In this document: positions 24,721 through 64,000 of the stretch, in pieces | Layout of the letters: each line of letters begins with the position of its first letter | How positions within the stretch are numbered: the first letter of the stretch is position 1 | Assembly: GCA_050011565.1 (NCBI GenBank) | Contig: JBEKIW010000002.1 | Span: forward strand, 128,001-192,000 | Source of the DNA: Dehalococcoidia bacterium | GTDB lineage: Bacteria > Chloroflexota > Dehalococcoidia > GIF9 > UBA5629 | DNA length: 64,000 bases | Reading direction: 5' to 3' | Notes under the pieces: model-generated | Told to the model about the DNA's origin: nothing | The model's input: the letters and a program-made list of their open reading frames with translations, nothing else | The model's database searches: none | Translations under genes and position numbers: made by a program

Positions 24721-26160
24721 CTACCTGCTATCGGGTGCCTTCTTTTTGTCACGCAGCGCTAGGTTAAGGACCAGAAGCAGGCCGCCAAGTGCGGCGCCGA
24801 AAAGGAATATGGCGTGAAAACCGATGACGAAAGCTTTCGGCGGTAATGAATGAGCCGCTATATTCGCCGATGAAATGCCCTGTCCGGCAATCACCGAAAG
24901 GAAGATAAGCGTGAACACGGCAATGCCCATCACGGCTCCCACATTCCTTACCGTGTTCACCAGGCTGCTGATCACACCCTCATCTCCCCTGGTACTCATA
25001 GACATAATGAGGTTGAAATTTGCCGGCATAACCAGCCCGATTCCAACTCCCTCGATAGCCAGAGCTATAATTATATAGGGCAGTGTCGTCCTGGTGCCCA
25101 TTACAGCAAATATCATAAAGGCCGCGATAAGGACCGCAGACCCCAATATACAGATGCGGCGAGGGCCTATCCGGTCGGAAAGGAATCCTGCTATTGATCC
25201 GCACACCATCATGAGCAAAGCGGGCACTAACAAAATAAGGCCGGCGATATTTGCGGCAAACCCTTTTTCCAGCTCCAGATAGAACGGAAAAGCGTACCAC
25301 GAACCCTGCCCCATCAGAAGAACAAGCATCGCCACAATAACTGCCATGGCAAAATTCCTGTTTCGGAAAAAGCCGAGGTTGATTAACGGCGATTGAGCCC
25401 TTCTTTCGTTAAATATGAAACCAGCCCAGGCTGCCACCGAGACCACGATGCTTGCCAGGATTCCCCAGGACAGCCACCCTATATTGGTCCCCATGTTCAA
25501 GAAGAAGATAAGACTGACTAAAGCTACCAGAAGCAGGCCGGCTCCCGGCAGGTCAAATCGACCCTTGATGAGTTCGCCGCTGTCACGGGGCAATATGGCA
25601 AAAGCTAATATGATAGCCAGTATGCCCACCGGTATATTCACAAAGAATATCCAGTGCCAGCTGTAGAACTGGGACAGAAAACCACCAAGAGGTGTGCCGG
25701 CGGCGAGGCCGACCGCGGCTGATGTCGTCAGTATGCCGAAGGCGGTTCCGCGGATTTTTTCCGGCAGGTATCTAACCACCATGGCGCCGCCGATTGCCTG
25801 CAGCATGGCGGCTCCAACCCCCTGAAGTACGCGGAAACCTATGAGCAGAAAGATGGTCGAGGACAATCCGCACGACAGCGAACCGATAGTAAAGATAGCA
25901 AAGCCGGCGACATAGATTTTCTTATAGCCGCGAATGTCGGCTACCCTGCCTAAGGTGATAAGTGTACTCGAGACAACCAGCAGATAGGATATCGCCACCC
26001 AGGAAACAGTCGCCACGTCAGACTGAAAATACTTTGAAATCGAAGGCAGCGAGATATTAACGATAGTCGTATCAAGAGCTCCCATAAATGAGGCGAGCGA
26101 AATCAGGAGCAAAATAAGCCACTGAGGGGAACTCTTTTCGGAATGATTAACCGGATTCAT
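24721..26160 (-). CDS. DHA2-type (14-TM) MFS efflux permease
   Basis: LDTTIVNISLP, GRVADIRG, WHWIFFVNIPVG. Confidence 0.9.
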   Translation of the reverse strand: MNPVNHSEKSSPQWLILLLISLASFMGALDTTIVNISLPSISKYFQSDVATVSWVAISYLLVVSSTLITLGRVADIRGYKKIYVAGFAIFTIGSLSCGLSSTIFLLIGFRVLQGVGAAMLQAIGGAMVVRYLPEKIRGTAFGILTTSAAVGLAAGTPLGGFLSQFYSWHWIFFVNIPVGILAIILAFAILPRDSGELIKGRFDLPGAGLLLVALVSLIFFLNMGTNIGWLSWGILASIVVSVAAWAGFIFNERRAQSPLINLGFFRNRNFAMAVIVAMLVLLMGQGSWYAFPFYLELEKGFAANIAGLILLVPALLMMVCGSIAGFLSDRIGPRRICILGSAVLIAAFMIFAVMGTRTTLPYIIIALAIEGVGIGLVMPANFNLIMSMSTRGDEGVISSLVNTVRNVGAVMGIAVFTLIFLSVIAGQGISSANIAAHSLPPKAFVIGFHAIFLFGAALGGLLLVLNLALRDKKKAPDSR

Positions 26161-26219
26161 AATAAAACCGATATACTTAAACCGCCTCAATATAAACTAC
26201 TCAATCGAATTTTGCAATG

Positions 26220-26294: not shown

Positions 26295-26337
26295 GCAGGC
26301 GCAATTGACCACCAAATACTAAGTGAGGAAAGTGAAT

Positions 26338-27390
26338 ATGACACAAGAGGTCTACAACAAACTGGCTGATGCGCTTAATGCCCGCAGCATGACATATCCG
26401 TCCGTACCTTGCGATGAGTTCTACGTTCTGGCTGAAGAGCTGTTTACCCCGGAGCAGGCGGAAATTGCTTCGAACATGCCCGTTAATCCCATATCAGCCG
26501 AAGAACTCGAAGCCAAGATGAAAGGGTCTAACGCTGCTAAATTAAGAAAGCAACTCGATGAAATGGCAGACAAAGGCTTGGTACGTGTCAAAGAAAAAGC
26601 CGGTAAGCGATTATATGAGCTCATGCCACTGGTTCCGGGCATCATCGAATTGCAGTTCATGCACGGCCGTGTTGACGAACGTACCAAGCGTTTGGCGCAA
26701 CTCTTCAAAAGCTACGCCAGGGCGCTGAAAAACATAATGCTGACGGTGGCTCCGCCACCTCCCGCCGCCGATGCGGCGCCGGTTAGAAAAATCTCCGTAG
26801 AAGAGGAAATCCACGACCGGTCCACGGTCCTGCCTTATGACGAGGTGATGAAGCTGATTGATAAAACGGAGTATATCGCCGCCGGGACTTGCGTTTGCCG
26901 GCATCAGGGCGACTTGCTGGACAGGCCCTGTGACAAGCCAAAAGATAACCTGTGCATGATTTTTGGTCCTTCGGCAAAGTTCGCCCAGAGCCACGGCTTC
27001 GTCCGTCTGATTTCCAGGGAGGAAGCCCGACAGAGAATTGACGAGGCGGAGAAAGCCGGCCTGGTCCATAACTATGCCAACAGCCAGGATAGATACATCG
27101 ACCTGCTGTGCAACTGCTGCGGCTGTCACTGTCTCATACTAAGAGGAGCTAAGCGGGCCCCGGTTCCCAGCCAGGCAGTTGTTGCCAACTGGGTTATAAC
27201 CATAGACGACGATGCCTGCATCGGCTGCGGCGCCTGCATCGACCGGTGCTGGATGGAAGCCTTGAAAATGGATGGTGACCTGGCGGTGCGCGATTTCAAT
27301 CGCTGTATCGGCTGCGGCATTTGCCGCTACGTATGCCCCACCGACGCCATGAAACTGGTGCACAGAGAAAAAGCCGCGGTCAAAAGCTAA
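26338..27390 (+). CDS. Fe-S protein (N-terminal HTH-like region, C.CR / CNCCxC motifs, C-terminal 2x[4Fe-4S])
   Basis: CVCR, LCNCCGCHC, CIGCGACIDRC, CIGCGICRYVCP. Confidence 0.85.
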   Translation: MTQEVYNKLADALNARSMTYPSVPCDEFYVLAEELFTPEQAEIASNMPVNPISAEELEAKMKGSNAAKLRKQLDEMADKGLVRVKEKAGKRLYELMPLVPGIIELQFMHGRVDERTKRLAQLFKSYARALKNIMLTVAPPPPAADAAPVRKISVEEEIHDRSTVLPYDEVMKLIDKTEYIAAGTCVCRHQGDLLDRPCDKPKDNLCMIFGPSAKFAQSHGFVRLISREEARQRIDEAEKAGLVHNYANSQDRYIDLLCNCCGCHCLILRGAKRAPVPSQAVVANWVITIDDDACIGCGACIDRCWMEALKMDGDLAVRDFNRCIGCGICRYVCPTDAMKLVHREKAAVKS

Positions 27391-27520: not shown

Positions 27521-29128
27521 ATGAATCTGGCAAGGCTGATGGAAGACAATGTGGCAAGGTTCGGCGAATATGACTTTGTCCACTTTGACGGGCAGTGGCA
27601 TACCAATGTCGAAATGAACCGCACGGTTAACTGGTTGGGCAATGCACTGAAAAGCCTAGGCATTAAAAAAGGAGACCGGATAGGTGTTCAGTTATTGAAC
27701 TGTCCCCAGCTAATACAGTCATTTTTCGCAGCCTTCAAAATCGGCGCCACATTGGTTCCGGTGAACCCGTCGCTGCGTGCCGACGAGCTCGCCTACATCT
27801 ATCAGGATGCCGGAATAAAAGCCTTAATCAGCAGCTCGGATGGCATGGACAGGATAAGAGAAGCCCGCCGCGAAGCACCCGAGCTAGAAAACGTAATCCT
27901 GCTTGGCGACGAAACCCCAGATGATGCCATTTCCTACGATAAAATCGTTAAGCAGGCTTCGGATGAACTGGTCATGGAGGACACGGATAACGACGATGTG
28001 GCCGTCATACTCTACACCGCCGGCACCACGGGCAGGCCAAAAGGAGTGATGCTGACCCATTACAACTGGTACACGCACGTTTCCGGATATTATGAGCTGG
28101 TATTACTGGATACCAGAGGCGTGATTGTCAAAGGAACGATTAGGGAGCCGGATGCTCGACAGGGTAAAAGGCGGACTAAGAAACAGGTGGAGGTTTTCGG
28201 TGTAAACCGGGACCGCGTCTCTCTGATTACTCTGCCTTTGTTCCACGGTTACGGAGTATTCGCCGTAAATCTTGAGTTCCTGACGGGCGGAAAGCTGGTC
28301 CTGCTCAGGCGATGGGATACCCAAGAGGCAATGAAGTCTATTGAACAATTCAAGGTCACCGAATTTCGCGGTGTGCCCACCATGTATATCCAGATGCTTA
28401 ATTACGCCGATGCCGGGAAATATGATTTGAGCTCCTTGCAGACCTGCATCTGCGGTTCGGCGCCCATGCCGCTGGAGGTAGCCCGCCGCTGGAAGGAGAG
28501 ATACGGCATCGATATCTGGGAAGGCTACGGGCTGAGTGAAGCCACCACCGTCAACTGCGGCAATGTAGCCGGAAAACGGCCGCCCAAATACGGCTCCATC
28601 GGCAAATGTTACCAGAAATGCAATACCATAAAGATATTCGACCACAATGATAAAGAACTGCCGCCAGGCGAGTTAGGCGAGATAGTTATCAAGGGCCCGG
28701 GGGTTATGAAGGGATACTGGAATAAACCTGAGGAAACCGCAGCTGTGCTTCGTAACGGCTGGCTTCACACCGGTGATATAGGCTATACCGATGAAGACGG
28801 CTATATTTATCTCACCGAGCGAAAGAAGGACCTTATCATCCGCGGCGGCGAAAACGTTTATCCCAAAGAGGTTGAAGATGTTCTTCACAGACACCCGCAG
28901 GTACTGGAAGCCGGAGTCATCGGCGTCCCCGACCCGGTTTACGGCGAGGAAGTAAAAGCGTTTGTCGTCCTAAAGACTTCGGGGGCAGCCTGTGAAGCCG
29001 AGCTAATAGAATTCTGCAAGCAGCACTTGCCTGCTTTCAAGAGACCAAAATCAATCCGGCTCATGGATGCACTACCCAAGAGCGCCGTGGGCAAGATACT
29101 CAGACGAGAGCTTAGAAAAATCGCTTAA
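27521..29128 (+). CDS. Long-chain acyl-CoA ligase (AMP-binding family)
   Basis: YTAGTTGRPKG, EGYGLSE, WLHTGD, LPKSAVGKILRR. Confidence 0.92.
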   Translation: MNLARLMEDNVARFGEYDFVHFDGQWHTNVEMNRTVNWLGNALKSLGIKKGDRIGVQLLNCPQLIQSFFAAFKIGATLVPVNPSLRADELAYIYQDAGIKALISSSDGMDRIREARREAPELENVILLGDETPDDAISYDKIVKQASDELVMEDTDNDDVAVILYTAGTTGRPKGVMLTHYNWYTHVSGYYELVLLDTRGVIVKGTIREPDARQGKRRTKKQVEVFGVNRDRVSLITLPLFHGYGVFAVNLEFLTGGKLVLLRRWDTQEAMKSIEQFKVTEFRGVPTMYIQMLNYADAGKYDLSSLQTCICGSAPMPLEVARRWKERYGIDIWEGYGLSEATTVNCGNVAGKRPPKYGSIGKCYQKCNTIKIFDHNDKELPPGELGEIVIKGPGVMKGYWNKPEETAAVLRNGWLHTGDIGYTDEDGYIYLTERKKDLIIRGGENVYPKEVEDVLHRHPQVLEAGVIGVPDPVYGEEVKAFVVLKTSGAACEAELIEFCKQHLPAFKRPKSIRLMDALPKSAVGKILRRELRKIA

Positions 29129-61906: not shown

Positions 61907-62719
61907 CTATCGTACATTATCAAGGAGCCTAAATAATTCAATAACCTTATCTTTGGATAATCTTGTTGATATTACTTTACCAACTACTTCCTTACTTTCT
62001 GATTCCACCCGCCCCTTAAAATAATTCACTTGTATATCGTATTCCCCCTTCAGTGAATCTGTATCCATTAAAAGTTTGTTAGTGAACTCAGGTTCATTTT
62101 TGTACCAATTCGTCATCCTTTTTAAGAATTCAATACATAAGAGCAATTGAAGCCTGAAAAGAAATTCCACAGATTCTGGATAATAAAAACCACCTAAAAA
62201 TAAATTATGTCCGTAATATGGTTTATCCGCCCCATAAACAGGAGTAGCCTTGCTATTCGTATGTATATATAAGGACAGCCAGTCCCATATATCTTTCCAT
62301 TCCTGACCGTCTTCAATCTTGTCTTTAATATTATTTATACTAAACCGAAGTCTTTCTTTTTTAGTCTCTGCTTTCCACCAAGCTAAAGCATCATTTGGGA
62401 AAGAATGTAAGTATTCCGTTAGAGCCATTGCCTCTATTGCATCCCTTACTACCATCATGGCCTGGAGATAAAAACCATTCTTTGTCAATTCACTAGTTAC
62501 CTTCAAATCATTCCATATACGAACCCCAAGATCGACAGTATGCCTATCTACTCTATTAGCCCTATCCTTTTTAGTTAATAGCCGGATATATTGCGCTAAA
62601 TATTCATATGCCTTATCCGATACGTTTTGAAGTTCCCCGATTAAATTAGCTATCTTCTCGCGAGTTACCGTGGAGTCTTCTTCCATTACATTTTTCAAAA
62701 TATATAATGGTCTAGGCAT
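61907..62719 (-). CDS. AT-rich hypothetical protein (DUF5677/HEPN-like)
   Basis: G.Y..A....R..IE, W..LS.YIH; GGAGG RBS. Confidence 0.6.
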   Translation of the reverse strand: MPRPLYILKNVMEEDSTVTREKIANLIGELQNVSDKAYEYLAQYIRLLTKKDRANRVDRHTVDLGVRIWNDLKVTSELTKNGFYLQAMMVVRDAIEAMALTEYLHSFPNDALAWWKAETKKERLRFSINNIKDKIEDGQEWKDIWDWLSLYIHTNSKATPVYGADKPYYGHNLFLGGFYYPESVEFLFRLQLLLCIEFLKRMTNWYKNEPEFTNKLLMDTDSLKGEYDIQVNYFKGRVESESKEVVGKVISTRLSKDKVIELFRLLDNVR

Positions 62720-62915: not shown

Positions 62916-63047
62916 GTGCTTCTATTCAACTATTCCACCATTATCGACCCGATACTGAAAGACGTCAGGACTTGTGTCGCTGAGCTTTATGGCATCAAGG
63001 CGGGCGACAGGGTACTGGATGTCGGCTGCGGTACGGGCGGCCTTTAA
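62916..63047 (+). pseudogene. Truncated class I SAM methyltransferase (43 codons)
   Basis: Reads ...GIKAGDRVLDVGCGTGGL* and then turns abruptly into A-rich sequence. Confidence 0.72.
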
Positions 63048-63191
63048 TTAAATCAAAAGTTAAAAGCCAAAATTCAAAAATACAAGTAAAATGTAATAAA
63101 TAGTCTCTAGACTGCGGAGATTTTTTCAGATTATGAAGGACGTGATACAATAATCCGGCGCATCATATATTAACTTGAGGAGACGACCGCT

Positions 63192-64000
63192 ATGACTACC
63201 GTTTATGAGAAGCTTCGCGAGAGATTGGATATGTTCCCACAGGGGTTCGCCAAGACGGAGAGCGGGGTGGAGCTGGAAATACTGAAACGCCTGTTTACTC
63301 CGGAAGAAGCGGAAATTATGCTGGGGCTCAAACCCATGCCGGAAAAGCTGGCGGATATTGCCCGGAGGATGGGCAGGGACGAAACCGAACTGGGAGAGAA
63401 ACTGTACGATATGTCCAAGCGGGGACTGCTCATGCGCTGGCAGGCACCCGATAAGGAAATGTACTATTTCCTGATTCCGTGGGCAATCGGTATTTTCGAG
63501 TTCCAGTTGAATAACCTCAACAAGAAAAACGTCGAGCTGTTCGAGAAATTCTACGAAGAAGGCATGGTGCCTTCCTGGAAAAACAGAAAAACGGGCATGG
63601 TCCGGGTTATTCCCGTTCAAAAAGAAATAGAAGGGAAAACCGAGATTCAGCCCTACGAAAGGGTGTCGCAGATTATCGAATCGCATACCAGGTTTGCTGT
63701 GGCTGACTGCATCTGCCGGAAAATAGGCAAAATGCAGGGACACGGCTGCGACAAGCTGATGGAAGCCTGCATGAGCTTCGGGCCGGCGGCGGATTTCTAC
63801 ATCGAGAACGGTATCGGACGGGAGATTACCAAAGAGGAGGCAAAGCAGATACTCGAAAAATCCGAGGAAGCCGGACTGATTCACTGCTCGACAAACAAGG
63901 TGGGCACCAAGACATTTATATGAAATTGCTGCGGCGACTGCTGCGGGGTCCTGCGGCTCATCACCAAATACGATAATCCTGGAATGGTAACCACATCTAA
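63192..64000 (+). CDS. Fe-S protein of the same family as 26338-27390, putative selenocysteine at TGA 63921-63923; runs off the window
   Basis: Read-through gives FI-U-NCCGDCCGVLRLITKYDNPGMVTTS, aligning with LL-C-NCCGCHCLILR of the paralog. Confidence 0.78.
63940..63957 (+). promoter_or_regulatory. Candidate SECIS element
   Basis: GCTGCGG-[GGTC]-CTGCGGC, loop begins 24 nt after TGA. Confidence 0.6.

Follow-up and report, generated by a model that had tools for sequence, protein, structure and literature searches.

Bacterial selenoproteins with an in-frame selenocysteine insertion sequence (SECIS), of which fdhF of Escherichia coli is the textbook case, carry their UGA at a cysteine (Cys) position, and a hairpin follows immediately downstream within the coding region. 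Among iron-sulfur (Fe-S) proteins, ferredoxin:thioredoxin reductase uses CxC motifs in which one Cys of each binds the cluster and the other is redox-active. Selenocysteine (Sec) forms of the catalytic subunit of this enzyme exist (NF041072, motif CxU; Table 1 of PMC13188914), and according to the same source, Sec at metal or Fe-S sites has mostly been predicted from Cys homologs. The model of bacterial SECIS elements (bSECIS) given there comprises a loop of 3-9 nucleotides (nt), a stem of 4-16 base pairs (bp), a G in the first two loop positions and a distance of 16-37 nt from the UGA. Here we describe a gene at the 3' end of a 64,000-nt stretch of DNA from a Dehalococcoidia bacterium (hereafter the window, G000:C2:128001-192000; the source genome G000 has 2.0 Mb in 8 contigs and is 99.2% complete). 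Judged from its sequence, the in-frame TGA of this gene at 63921-63923 is very probably read as Sec (residue U244), which would make it a functional selenoprotein gene.

The locus shares the arrangement of the in-frame-SECIS selenoproteins, and its candidate hairpin has, as in the bSECIS model of that source, a loop of 4 or 7 nt that opens with G and is located 16-23 nt after the UGA. It differs in that the hairpin is built of the repeated UGC-UGC-GG codons of a Cys motif, which allows two registers. The NF005503 family is similar in combining Sec in a Cys-rich Fe-S motif with 4Fe-4S ferredoxin domains, and JGI labels both 'RnfB'. The winged helix and the central domain of our protein are, in contrast, without counterpart in that model. 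Membership in NF005503 was considered and rejected, as the model is not among the 25 best NCBIfam matches of the Sec protein; a Cys paralog in the window reaches 33.9 bits against a cut-off of 252, in the ferredoxin domain only. Ferredoxin:thioredoxin reductase is likewise a small Fe-S protein with Sec in a C-x-C type motif and may serve as a model for a U244 located beside a cluster; no sequence or fold relationship to it was found with NCBIfam, Foldseek or VIA. The N-terminal 130 residues are predicted to adopt the winged-helix fold of MarR/ArsR regulators, and some of the truncated forms are listed at NCBI as 'MarR family' or 'winged helix-turn-helix transcriptional regulator'. Unlike in these regulators, the putative recognition helix is acidic and without family-wide conserved basic residues, and some paralogs lack the winged helix. 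Table 1 of PMC13188914, a review of May 2026, lists 119 families, none of which has this architecture or domain; an earlier listing elsewhere is possible, and the family appears to be uncatalogued. The mechanism itself is textbook recoding and already known. The novelty lies in the family, in its domain without a name and in two independent gains of Sec at one Cys.

A TGA codon at an invariant cysteine

An ATG-started open reading frame (ORF) of 243 codons on the forward strand (63192..63923) ends with ...GTKTFI-TGA, the TGA being located at 63921-63923 (Table 1). Past the TGA the frame continues as NCCGDCCGVLRLITK... and reads NCCGDCCGVLRLITKYDNPGMVTTS up to the end of the window. With the TGA taken as Sec (U), it remains open beyond the window to a TAA at C2:192272-192274 and encodes 360 residues. 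The selenoprotein coding sequence (CDS) extends 274 nt beyond the window and ends at the would-be window position 64274 (G000:C2:192274). The part beyond position 64000 encodes a C-terminal ferredoxin domain that is intact, both of its CxxCxxCxxxC motifs being complete, and then reaches the TAA stop.

An earlier note on this DNA, made from the letters of the window, had placed the TGA at a conserved Cys by comparison with a Cys paralog in the same window, and both BLASTP and an alignment of 138 sequences (A1) bear this out. The Sec gene and the paralog (26323/26338-27390) are 30% identical over 344 columns (E 1e-51), and U244 falls opposite the first Cys of the paralog's CNCCGCHCLILR (CNCCGCHC). 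In A1, the column of U244 is occupied by an invariant Cys in 137/137 other sequences. The residue following CCG in the motif is Asp in the Sec gene and Cys in the nearest Cys-type relatives.

In the mechanism that we propose, the ribosome would decode the UGA at 63921-63923 as Sec rather than as a stop. The hairpin at 63928-63957, made of codons of the Cys-rich motif (N-C-C-G-D-C-C-G-V-L-R), would act as bacterial SECIS element and recruit SelB carrying Sec-tRNA(Sec). The predicted product is a protein of 360 amino acids (aa) consisting of a winged helix, a central alpha/beta domain and a 2x[4Fe-4S] ferredoxin domain. The alpha/beta domain is unnamed and has eight conserved Cys; Sec would take the place of the one that leads its C-x-C-C-x-x-C-C motif and is conserved universally.

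Table 1 Features of the Sec gene and of its Cys paralog in the window (window coordinates)
Feature	Position	Strand	Basis or remark
Shine-Dalgarno-like GAGGAG	63177..63182	+	9 nt 5' of ATG; seen in sequence
Codons 1-243, the part called by standard annotation as a 243-aa protein	63192..63920	+	ORF list
N-terminal winged-helix (MarR/ArsR-like) domain, residues ~14-132 (predicted)	63231..63587	+	Structure model, fold matches
Central Cys-rich domain, residues ~133-272, cut by the window end	63588..64000	+	138-sequence alignment A1
UGA as putative selenocysteine U244, first position of the motif U-N-C-C-G-D-C-C	63921..63923	+	Alignment, ortholog recurrence
Codons 245-269; CDS runs on past the window into the 2x[4Fe-4S] ferredoxin domain and ends with TAA	63924..64000	+	
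Candidate SECIS hairpin	63928..63957	+	Folding, Sec-only synonymous freezing
Cys paralog with the three-domain architecture of the Sec gene, motif C-N-C-C-G-C-H-C	26323..27390	+	Likelier start is ATG 26338

Recurrence of the codon among relatives

Among 41 related genomes, the closest orthologs (71-87% identity) contain an internal TGA, in seven copies from six genomes of the genus (G000, G004, G003, G013 with two copies, G009 and G012). Orthologs at 67-74% identity (G008, G002, G005, G010, G006, G035 and a split one in G007) are without internal TGA. The identical codon is TGA in 7/7 TGA-bearing copies and Cys in the 7/7 more distant orthologs. Genome G012 was excluded from later counts for its extra frame disruptions upstream. 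In its Sec-type copy (L033 / L046), a local slip of the frame 5' of the Sec codon produces additional in-frame TGAs, and the Cys-type copy of G007 (G007:C1:24117-25194) is split into two overlapping pieces; both disruptions may be assembly indels or real decay.

When metagenomes were included, 58/60 ortholog loci carried the motif, 34 of them with TGA and 24 with Cys. Because six of the 34 TGA loci are genomes that occur in two collections, the number of distinct contigs is about 28, enough to make an assembly artefact very unlikely; the 48-nt sequence occurs in 13 different versions. The codon hence recurs in other species and many metagenomes. It was also recovered at the level of reads, since an independent peat DNA run (X3) holds a contig identical to the window over 63894-64000, across the codon.

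The earlier note had expected standard annotation to truncate such a gene, and this is what public databases contain: of the 65 new protein clusters that come nearest to the N-terminal 243 aa, 62 end with ...FI right before the codon, and 58 of the 62 are 243 aa long. They are named 'hypothetical protein [Dehalococcoidia bacterium]', 'RnfB' or 'MarR family transcriptional regulator, partial'. On the proposed reading, public annotation cuts the gene short because the TGA is read as Sec.

Selenocysteine machinery

A tRNA-Sec was detected in G000 with ARAGORN and Rfam (72.1 bits, cut-off 47), together with selB (368 bits), selA (572 bits) and selD (396 bits). All are above their curated cut-offs and clustered on contig C4, where selA, selB and tRNA-Sec adjoin selD. 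The selD gene (G000:C4:46992-47918, reverse strand) is itself Sec-containing, with the TGA at the canonical site (...GAG-U-ASKLGPGDL), and its SECIS is a 7-bp hairpin whose loop (GGGAG) begins 20 nt downstream, counted from the U of that codon. SelB was above its cut-off in 4/5 further TGA-form genomes as well as in 4/5 Cys-form genomes of the genus; the latter relatives therefore keep Cys despite having the Sec trait.

A candidate SECIS hairpin within the motif codons

The hairpin GCUGCGG/GGUC/CUGCGGC described in the earlier note is present at 63940-63957, but it is contained in a larger and more stable hairpin at 63928-63957. The larger one (structure A) has 11 bp (4+7) with a 1-nt bulge and a folding free energy (dG) of -16.3. 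Its outer stem pairs 63928-63934 with 63951-63957, C 63935 is bulged, and the inner stem pairs 63936-63939 with 63947-63950; in element numbering, 8-14 pair with 31-37 and 16-19 with 27-30, C15 being bulged. The apical loop GCUGCGG (63940-63946) starts at +20, the same loop start as in the selD SECIS of this genome, with a spacing of 16 nt from the UGA. Structure B, the register noted earlier, pairs 63940-63946 with 63951-63957 (20-26 with 31-37) and consists of 7 bp, two of them G.U, with a dG of -10.9 and a spacing of 23 nt from the UGA. Its GGUC loop presumably equals the apical loop of fdhF. Structures A and B both comply with the bSECIS model as given in PMC13188914.

The element common to all Sec forms is TGAAAYTGCTGCGGCGAYTGCTGCGGGGTCCTGCRGC, after position 37 of which the sequences diverge freely. 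In Sec forms, and only in these, synonymous sites have hardly changed over the 37 nt that follow the TGA. Within codons +1..+12, synonymous differences amount to 21/170 (12%) in Sec forms compared with 37% in the rest of the gene, whereas the Cys forms have 30.5% in these codons and 30.7% in the rest. The codons GGG GTC CTG CGG, four- to six-fold degenerate, are frozen in Sec forms, but Cys forms with the identical G-V-L-R use varying codons. The five variable positions of the element (6, 12, 15, 18 and 35) are all structure-compatible, being either unpaired or changed with pairing kept. As the hairpin is retained only in Sec forms and lies at the position of the selD SECIS, it points to SelB as its partner.

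Two gains of selenocysteine at the same codon

A quick IQ-TREE reconstruction with branch support from the Shimodaira-Hasegawa-like approximate likelihood ratio test (SH-aLRT) was calculated for 110 N-terminal sequences, namely 63 Sec forms, six Cys forms with the Asp-containing motif (Cys-D) and 41/118 Cys forms with Cys at that position (Cys-C). The Cys-C rows had been thinned by keeping every third and five forced ones, so that 77 were dropped. The Sec and Cys-D sequences formed one clade (SH-aLRT 97) that includes no C-N-C-C-G-C form. P0002 and the five other members of the Cys-D cluster, all of them ordinary JGI/ENA gene calls, were nested deep within the Sec clade (support 99). The tree requires a minimum of two changes, one gain of Sec from Cys and one reversion.

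A second case was found in G017, which belongs to another genus of the same family. Its 400-aa paralog (L209:566-1768, G017:C11) is 30% identical to our protein and reads ...PDTI-U-NCCSCCC, with Sec at the same position. The ortholog of this paralog in G053, 50% identical, has Cys at the codon. Among the clusters closest to the N-terminal part of the G017 paralog (82-90% identity, 66 member sequences), 7/9 end at ...PDTI, and NCBI names one such truncated cluster 'winged helix-turn-helix transcriptional regulator'; more distant clusters are full-length Cys forms. A search for the G017 type in 301 class-level genomes matched only one at E <= 1e-60, namely G053 with its Cys. Judged by these sequences, the second subfamily is one that gained Sec independently at the same codon. 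This second Sec clade is known from one DNA sequence.

Alternative readings of the TGA

The alternative that survives best, itself very unlikely, regards the TGA as a real stop behind a 243-aa winged-helix protein, with the ferredoxin part being either a separate gene or reached by rare leaky read-through with insertion of Trp or Cys. TGA indeed functions as a normal stop in G000, where it terminates 282/1005 (28%) of the ORFs of at least 250 codons, and UGA is the leakiest of the stop codons. However, a stop at this codon would cut through a compact domain right within its Cys motif. In the translation, the next Met in frame lies 24 codons downstream of the TGA, and no ribosome-binding site was seen for a start at this Met. 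Furthermore, the hairpin is conserved in Sec forms specifically, at the position of the selD SECIS, and the residue replaced is always Cys, the chemical analogue of Sec.

The earlier note had also left room for a TGC>TGA nonsense change, i.e. a pseudogene that yields a 243-aa truncated protein while its downstream part decays. TGC and TGA are one base apart, annotation pipelines call the 243-aa product, and the relative G012 has extra frame disruptions upstream. The gene is nevertheless intact where decay should be found: 114-116 open codons follow the TGA in 15/15 distinct full-length Sec genes, which end with GK.FPF[DE], and the median ratio of nonsynonymous to synonymous substitution rates (dN/dS) is 0.112 downstream of the TGA (41 equal-length pairs) versus 0.127 upstream (104 pairs). 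The downstream part is thus under purifying selection, which means that the 3' part is translated. Past the TGA, conservation at synonymous sites rises instead of falling, and the TGA has persisted in a clade that comprises the window gene and 62 truncated public clusters, with 77-93% identity among the proteins. Purifying selection on the downstream part (dN/dS 0.11) refutes the pseudogene, and with that identity in the Sec clade the nonsense change is excluded, its residual probability being negligible. Reassignment or suppression of TGA throughout the genome, as in code 4 or 25 and with Trp or Gly at this position, occurs in some uncultured bacteria but is exceedingly improbable here, since the share of long ORFs ending in TGA shows that the code is not reassigned in G000, the sole tRNA reported with the anticodon tca is tRNA-Sec, and Trp or Gly is implausible at an invariant Cys of a metal motif.

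Several observations count against the reading as Sec or the roles derived from it, and are collected here. Taken by itself, the folding energy is no more than modestly unusual (-17.7 kcal/mol over 45 nt, z of -2.07), and 7/200 shuffled sequences folded as well; the strong evidence is comparative, namely the TGA that recurs, the selection on the downstream part and the frozen synonymous sites. The element exhibits no true compensatory covariation, as all changes are one-sided (C>U opposite G, G>A opposite U, or unpaired); without a double compensatory change, structures A and B cannot be told apart. A permissive Rfam scan of the element retrieved no SECIS family and only a chance snoRNA match (E 4.9). 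The TGA-form genome G003 has a tRNA-Sec (74 bits), and no selA or selB was found in its assembly, a short-contig scaffold that is 77% complete and has a 100-N gap 63 nt from the break in synteny with the sel locus of G000. The six-member cluster of Cys revertants (P0002) inside the Sec clade indicates that Sec is not indispensable. At the level of RNA, library X24 contains a single 151-nt contig of a relative that bridges the codon with 3 differences and runs into ...NYYAEKDDD; DNA carry-over is possible, and the contig is weak support and not proof of expression. Lastly, we infer the roles of U244 and of the whole protein from motif logic. The selenoprotein reading of the earlier note has stood, with an intact frame, a recurrent TGA, the Sec machinery and purifying selection downstream in its favour.

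Protein family, domains and possible function

Pfam assigns a complete 2x[4Fe-4S] domain to residues 276-327 (PF14697, 37.9 bits with a cut-off of 35; PF00037, 35.5 bits with a cut-off of 21.1). Its Cys residues C280, C283, C286, C290 and C310, C313, C316, C320 are conserved in A1. In the same alignment, positions 173 and 244 are invariant and C175, C186, C193, C246, C247 and C251 are at least 90% conserved. Across distant paralogs, the motif positions 244, 246 and 251 are always kept. The CCG in this motif brought the HdrB-type CCG domain into consideration, but PF02754 is absent from the Pfam matches at E <= 0.01 and this candidate was rejected.

The AlphaFold model of the protein has a predicted local distance difference test score (pLDDT) of 94.2 and a predicted template modelling score (pTM) of 0.91. 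For residues 14-132, VIA-align yielded Z values of ~8-9.4 to winged helix-turn-helix (wHTH) regulators (e.g. 2nyx_A with Z 9.2 and a root-mean-square deviation of 2.0 over 60 aligned residues), values that according to the tool's own note can mean a mere common arrangement. Foldseek placed MexR and AbfR at E ~5e-3 to 2e-2 for this part. By sequence, there was no Pfam MarR match at E <= 0.01, and MexR in the PDB was matched at E 0.6-1.3 only. PDB sequence searches recovered the ferredoxin domain only, and nothing below E 0.3 for the N-terminal 243 aa. For the central domain, no Pfam or NCBIfam model was found. Folded alone (pLDDT 84.5), it matched no solved structure, the best values being E 0.83 in Foldseek and Z 4.3 in VIA. 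The best fold resemblance is a weak GNAT-like topology, and a new fold is not thereby proven. An ESM Atlas search with residues 150-290 of the Cys paralog returned unnamed clusters only (best score 0.90).

A HMMER search against 1.84 billion representatives retrieved 6761 relatives when E <= 1e-3 was required and 688 with the stricter E <= 1e-30. The named members belong to Dehalococcoidia/Chloroflexota and in many cases to Desulfobacterota. Of the genome loci examined, 80 were kept, five with TGA (all in Dehalococcoidia-type metagenome-assembled genomes, MAGs) and 75 with Cys, in a scan that is biased because it was seeded partly by the CNCCGDCC pattern. G000 itself encodes four shorter paralogs (L204:564-1109 and L206:683-1513, both on the reverse strand, L205:602-1417 on the forward and L207:739-1569 on the reverse strand). 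One is a 181-aa protein with the central domain only; one of 271 aa and two of 276 aa consist of the central and ferredoxin domains without a winged helix. In the two 276-aa paralogs the motif takes the form C-N-C-D-x-x-D-C, and a CxxC is present at the N-terminus.

No conserved gene neighbour was found in 15 ortholog loci and 73 Desulfobacterota-type loci. The only recurrent neighbour of the orthologs is a UbiE-like methyltransferase (5/15 loci). Among the Desulfobacterota-type loci, 67 of which have the family's own cluster, no neighbour is common to more than ten: an old yellow enzyme (OYE) flavoenzyme occurs in 10, a molybdenum (Mo) oxidoreductase in 8 and an AMP-binding ligase in 5.

From its motifs, the protein is probably a multi-cluster redox protein in which U244 either coordinates an Fe-S site or is a reactive residue adjacent to one. 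Probably the clusters of the ferredoxin domain are connected to one or two additional Fe-S clusters in the central domain. U244 would more likely, for a Sec site, be a redox-active residue next to the cluster than a cluster ligand, an arrangement that would resemble the CxC motifs of ferredoxin:thioredoxin reductase. Regarding the role of the whole protein, we lean towards a soluble redox or electron-transfer protein, because paralogs without the winged helix exist and the partial neighbours are reductases. A redox-sensing regulator, for which only the predicted fold speaks, is a distinctly less likely role. Less likely still, U244 would be the selenium ligand or reactive partner of a new Fe-S site, located in a domain without solved relatives, and the winged helix would make the protein a selenium-tuned DNA-binding redox sensor, the first selenoprotein transcription factor. 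If a sensor reading of this kind were true, the two Cys-to-Sec replacements would mark the sensing or catalytic atom of an unstudied family of 688 clusters (E <= 1e-30).

Neighbouring and related loci

A peroxiredoxin (AhpC/TSA)-like gene is located ~2.2 kb past the end of the window (G000:C2:194196-194648, forward strand; L124:11196-11648). It has an in-frame TGA exactly at the position of the peroxidatic Cys (...WTPV-U-SDQ...), and translation table 11 yields only a 103-aa fragment of it (profile positions 46-123 of 124). This gene probably encodes a peroxiredoxin-type selenoprotein, which is a known family.

Upstream of the Sec gene, a 43-aa remnant (...GDRVLDVGCGTGGL; 62916-63047, forward strand) of a UbiE-like S-adenosylmethionine (SAM) methyltransferase is present, apparently truncated; the full gene of ~200 aa lies directly 5' of the ortholog in 5/15 loci. 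Beside the remnant there is an unrelated 270-aa ORF (61907-62719, reverse strand) without Pfam match. The Cys paralog of the window is divergent from an ORF resembling transporters of the major facilitator superfamily (24721-26190, reverse strand; named by eye). Downstream of the paralog, a 535-aa ORF (27521-29128) has by eye the look of an AMP-binding acyl-CoA ligase, and AMP-binding ligases also adjoin family genes in 5 Desulfobacterota loci. In a Desulfobacteraceae MAG, an ORF neighbouring a family gene (L047:3606-4670, reverse strand) matches the dimethylamine methyltransferase family PF09505 at profile positions 3-353 of 463. We take this partial match to be the pattern expected from a cut at the in-frame TAG (pyrrolysine) known for dimethylamine methyltransferase.

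Significance

The family is subject to systematic mis-annotation, as 62/65 of the closest clusters and 7/9 in the second subfamily are deposited as truncated 'hypothetical' or 'MarR/wHTH' proteins. Gains of Sec tend to mark redox-active residues, and two independent gains at one invariant Cys would thus show where the functional centre lies in this large Fe-S family, which is unnamed and occurs in anaerobes (Dehalococcoidia, Desulfobacterota). In addition, the codons of the Cys-rich motif itself (UGC UGC GG, repeated) can supply the SECIS hairpin, which helps to explain why conversion of Cys to Sec may come about easily in bacteria.

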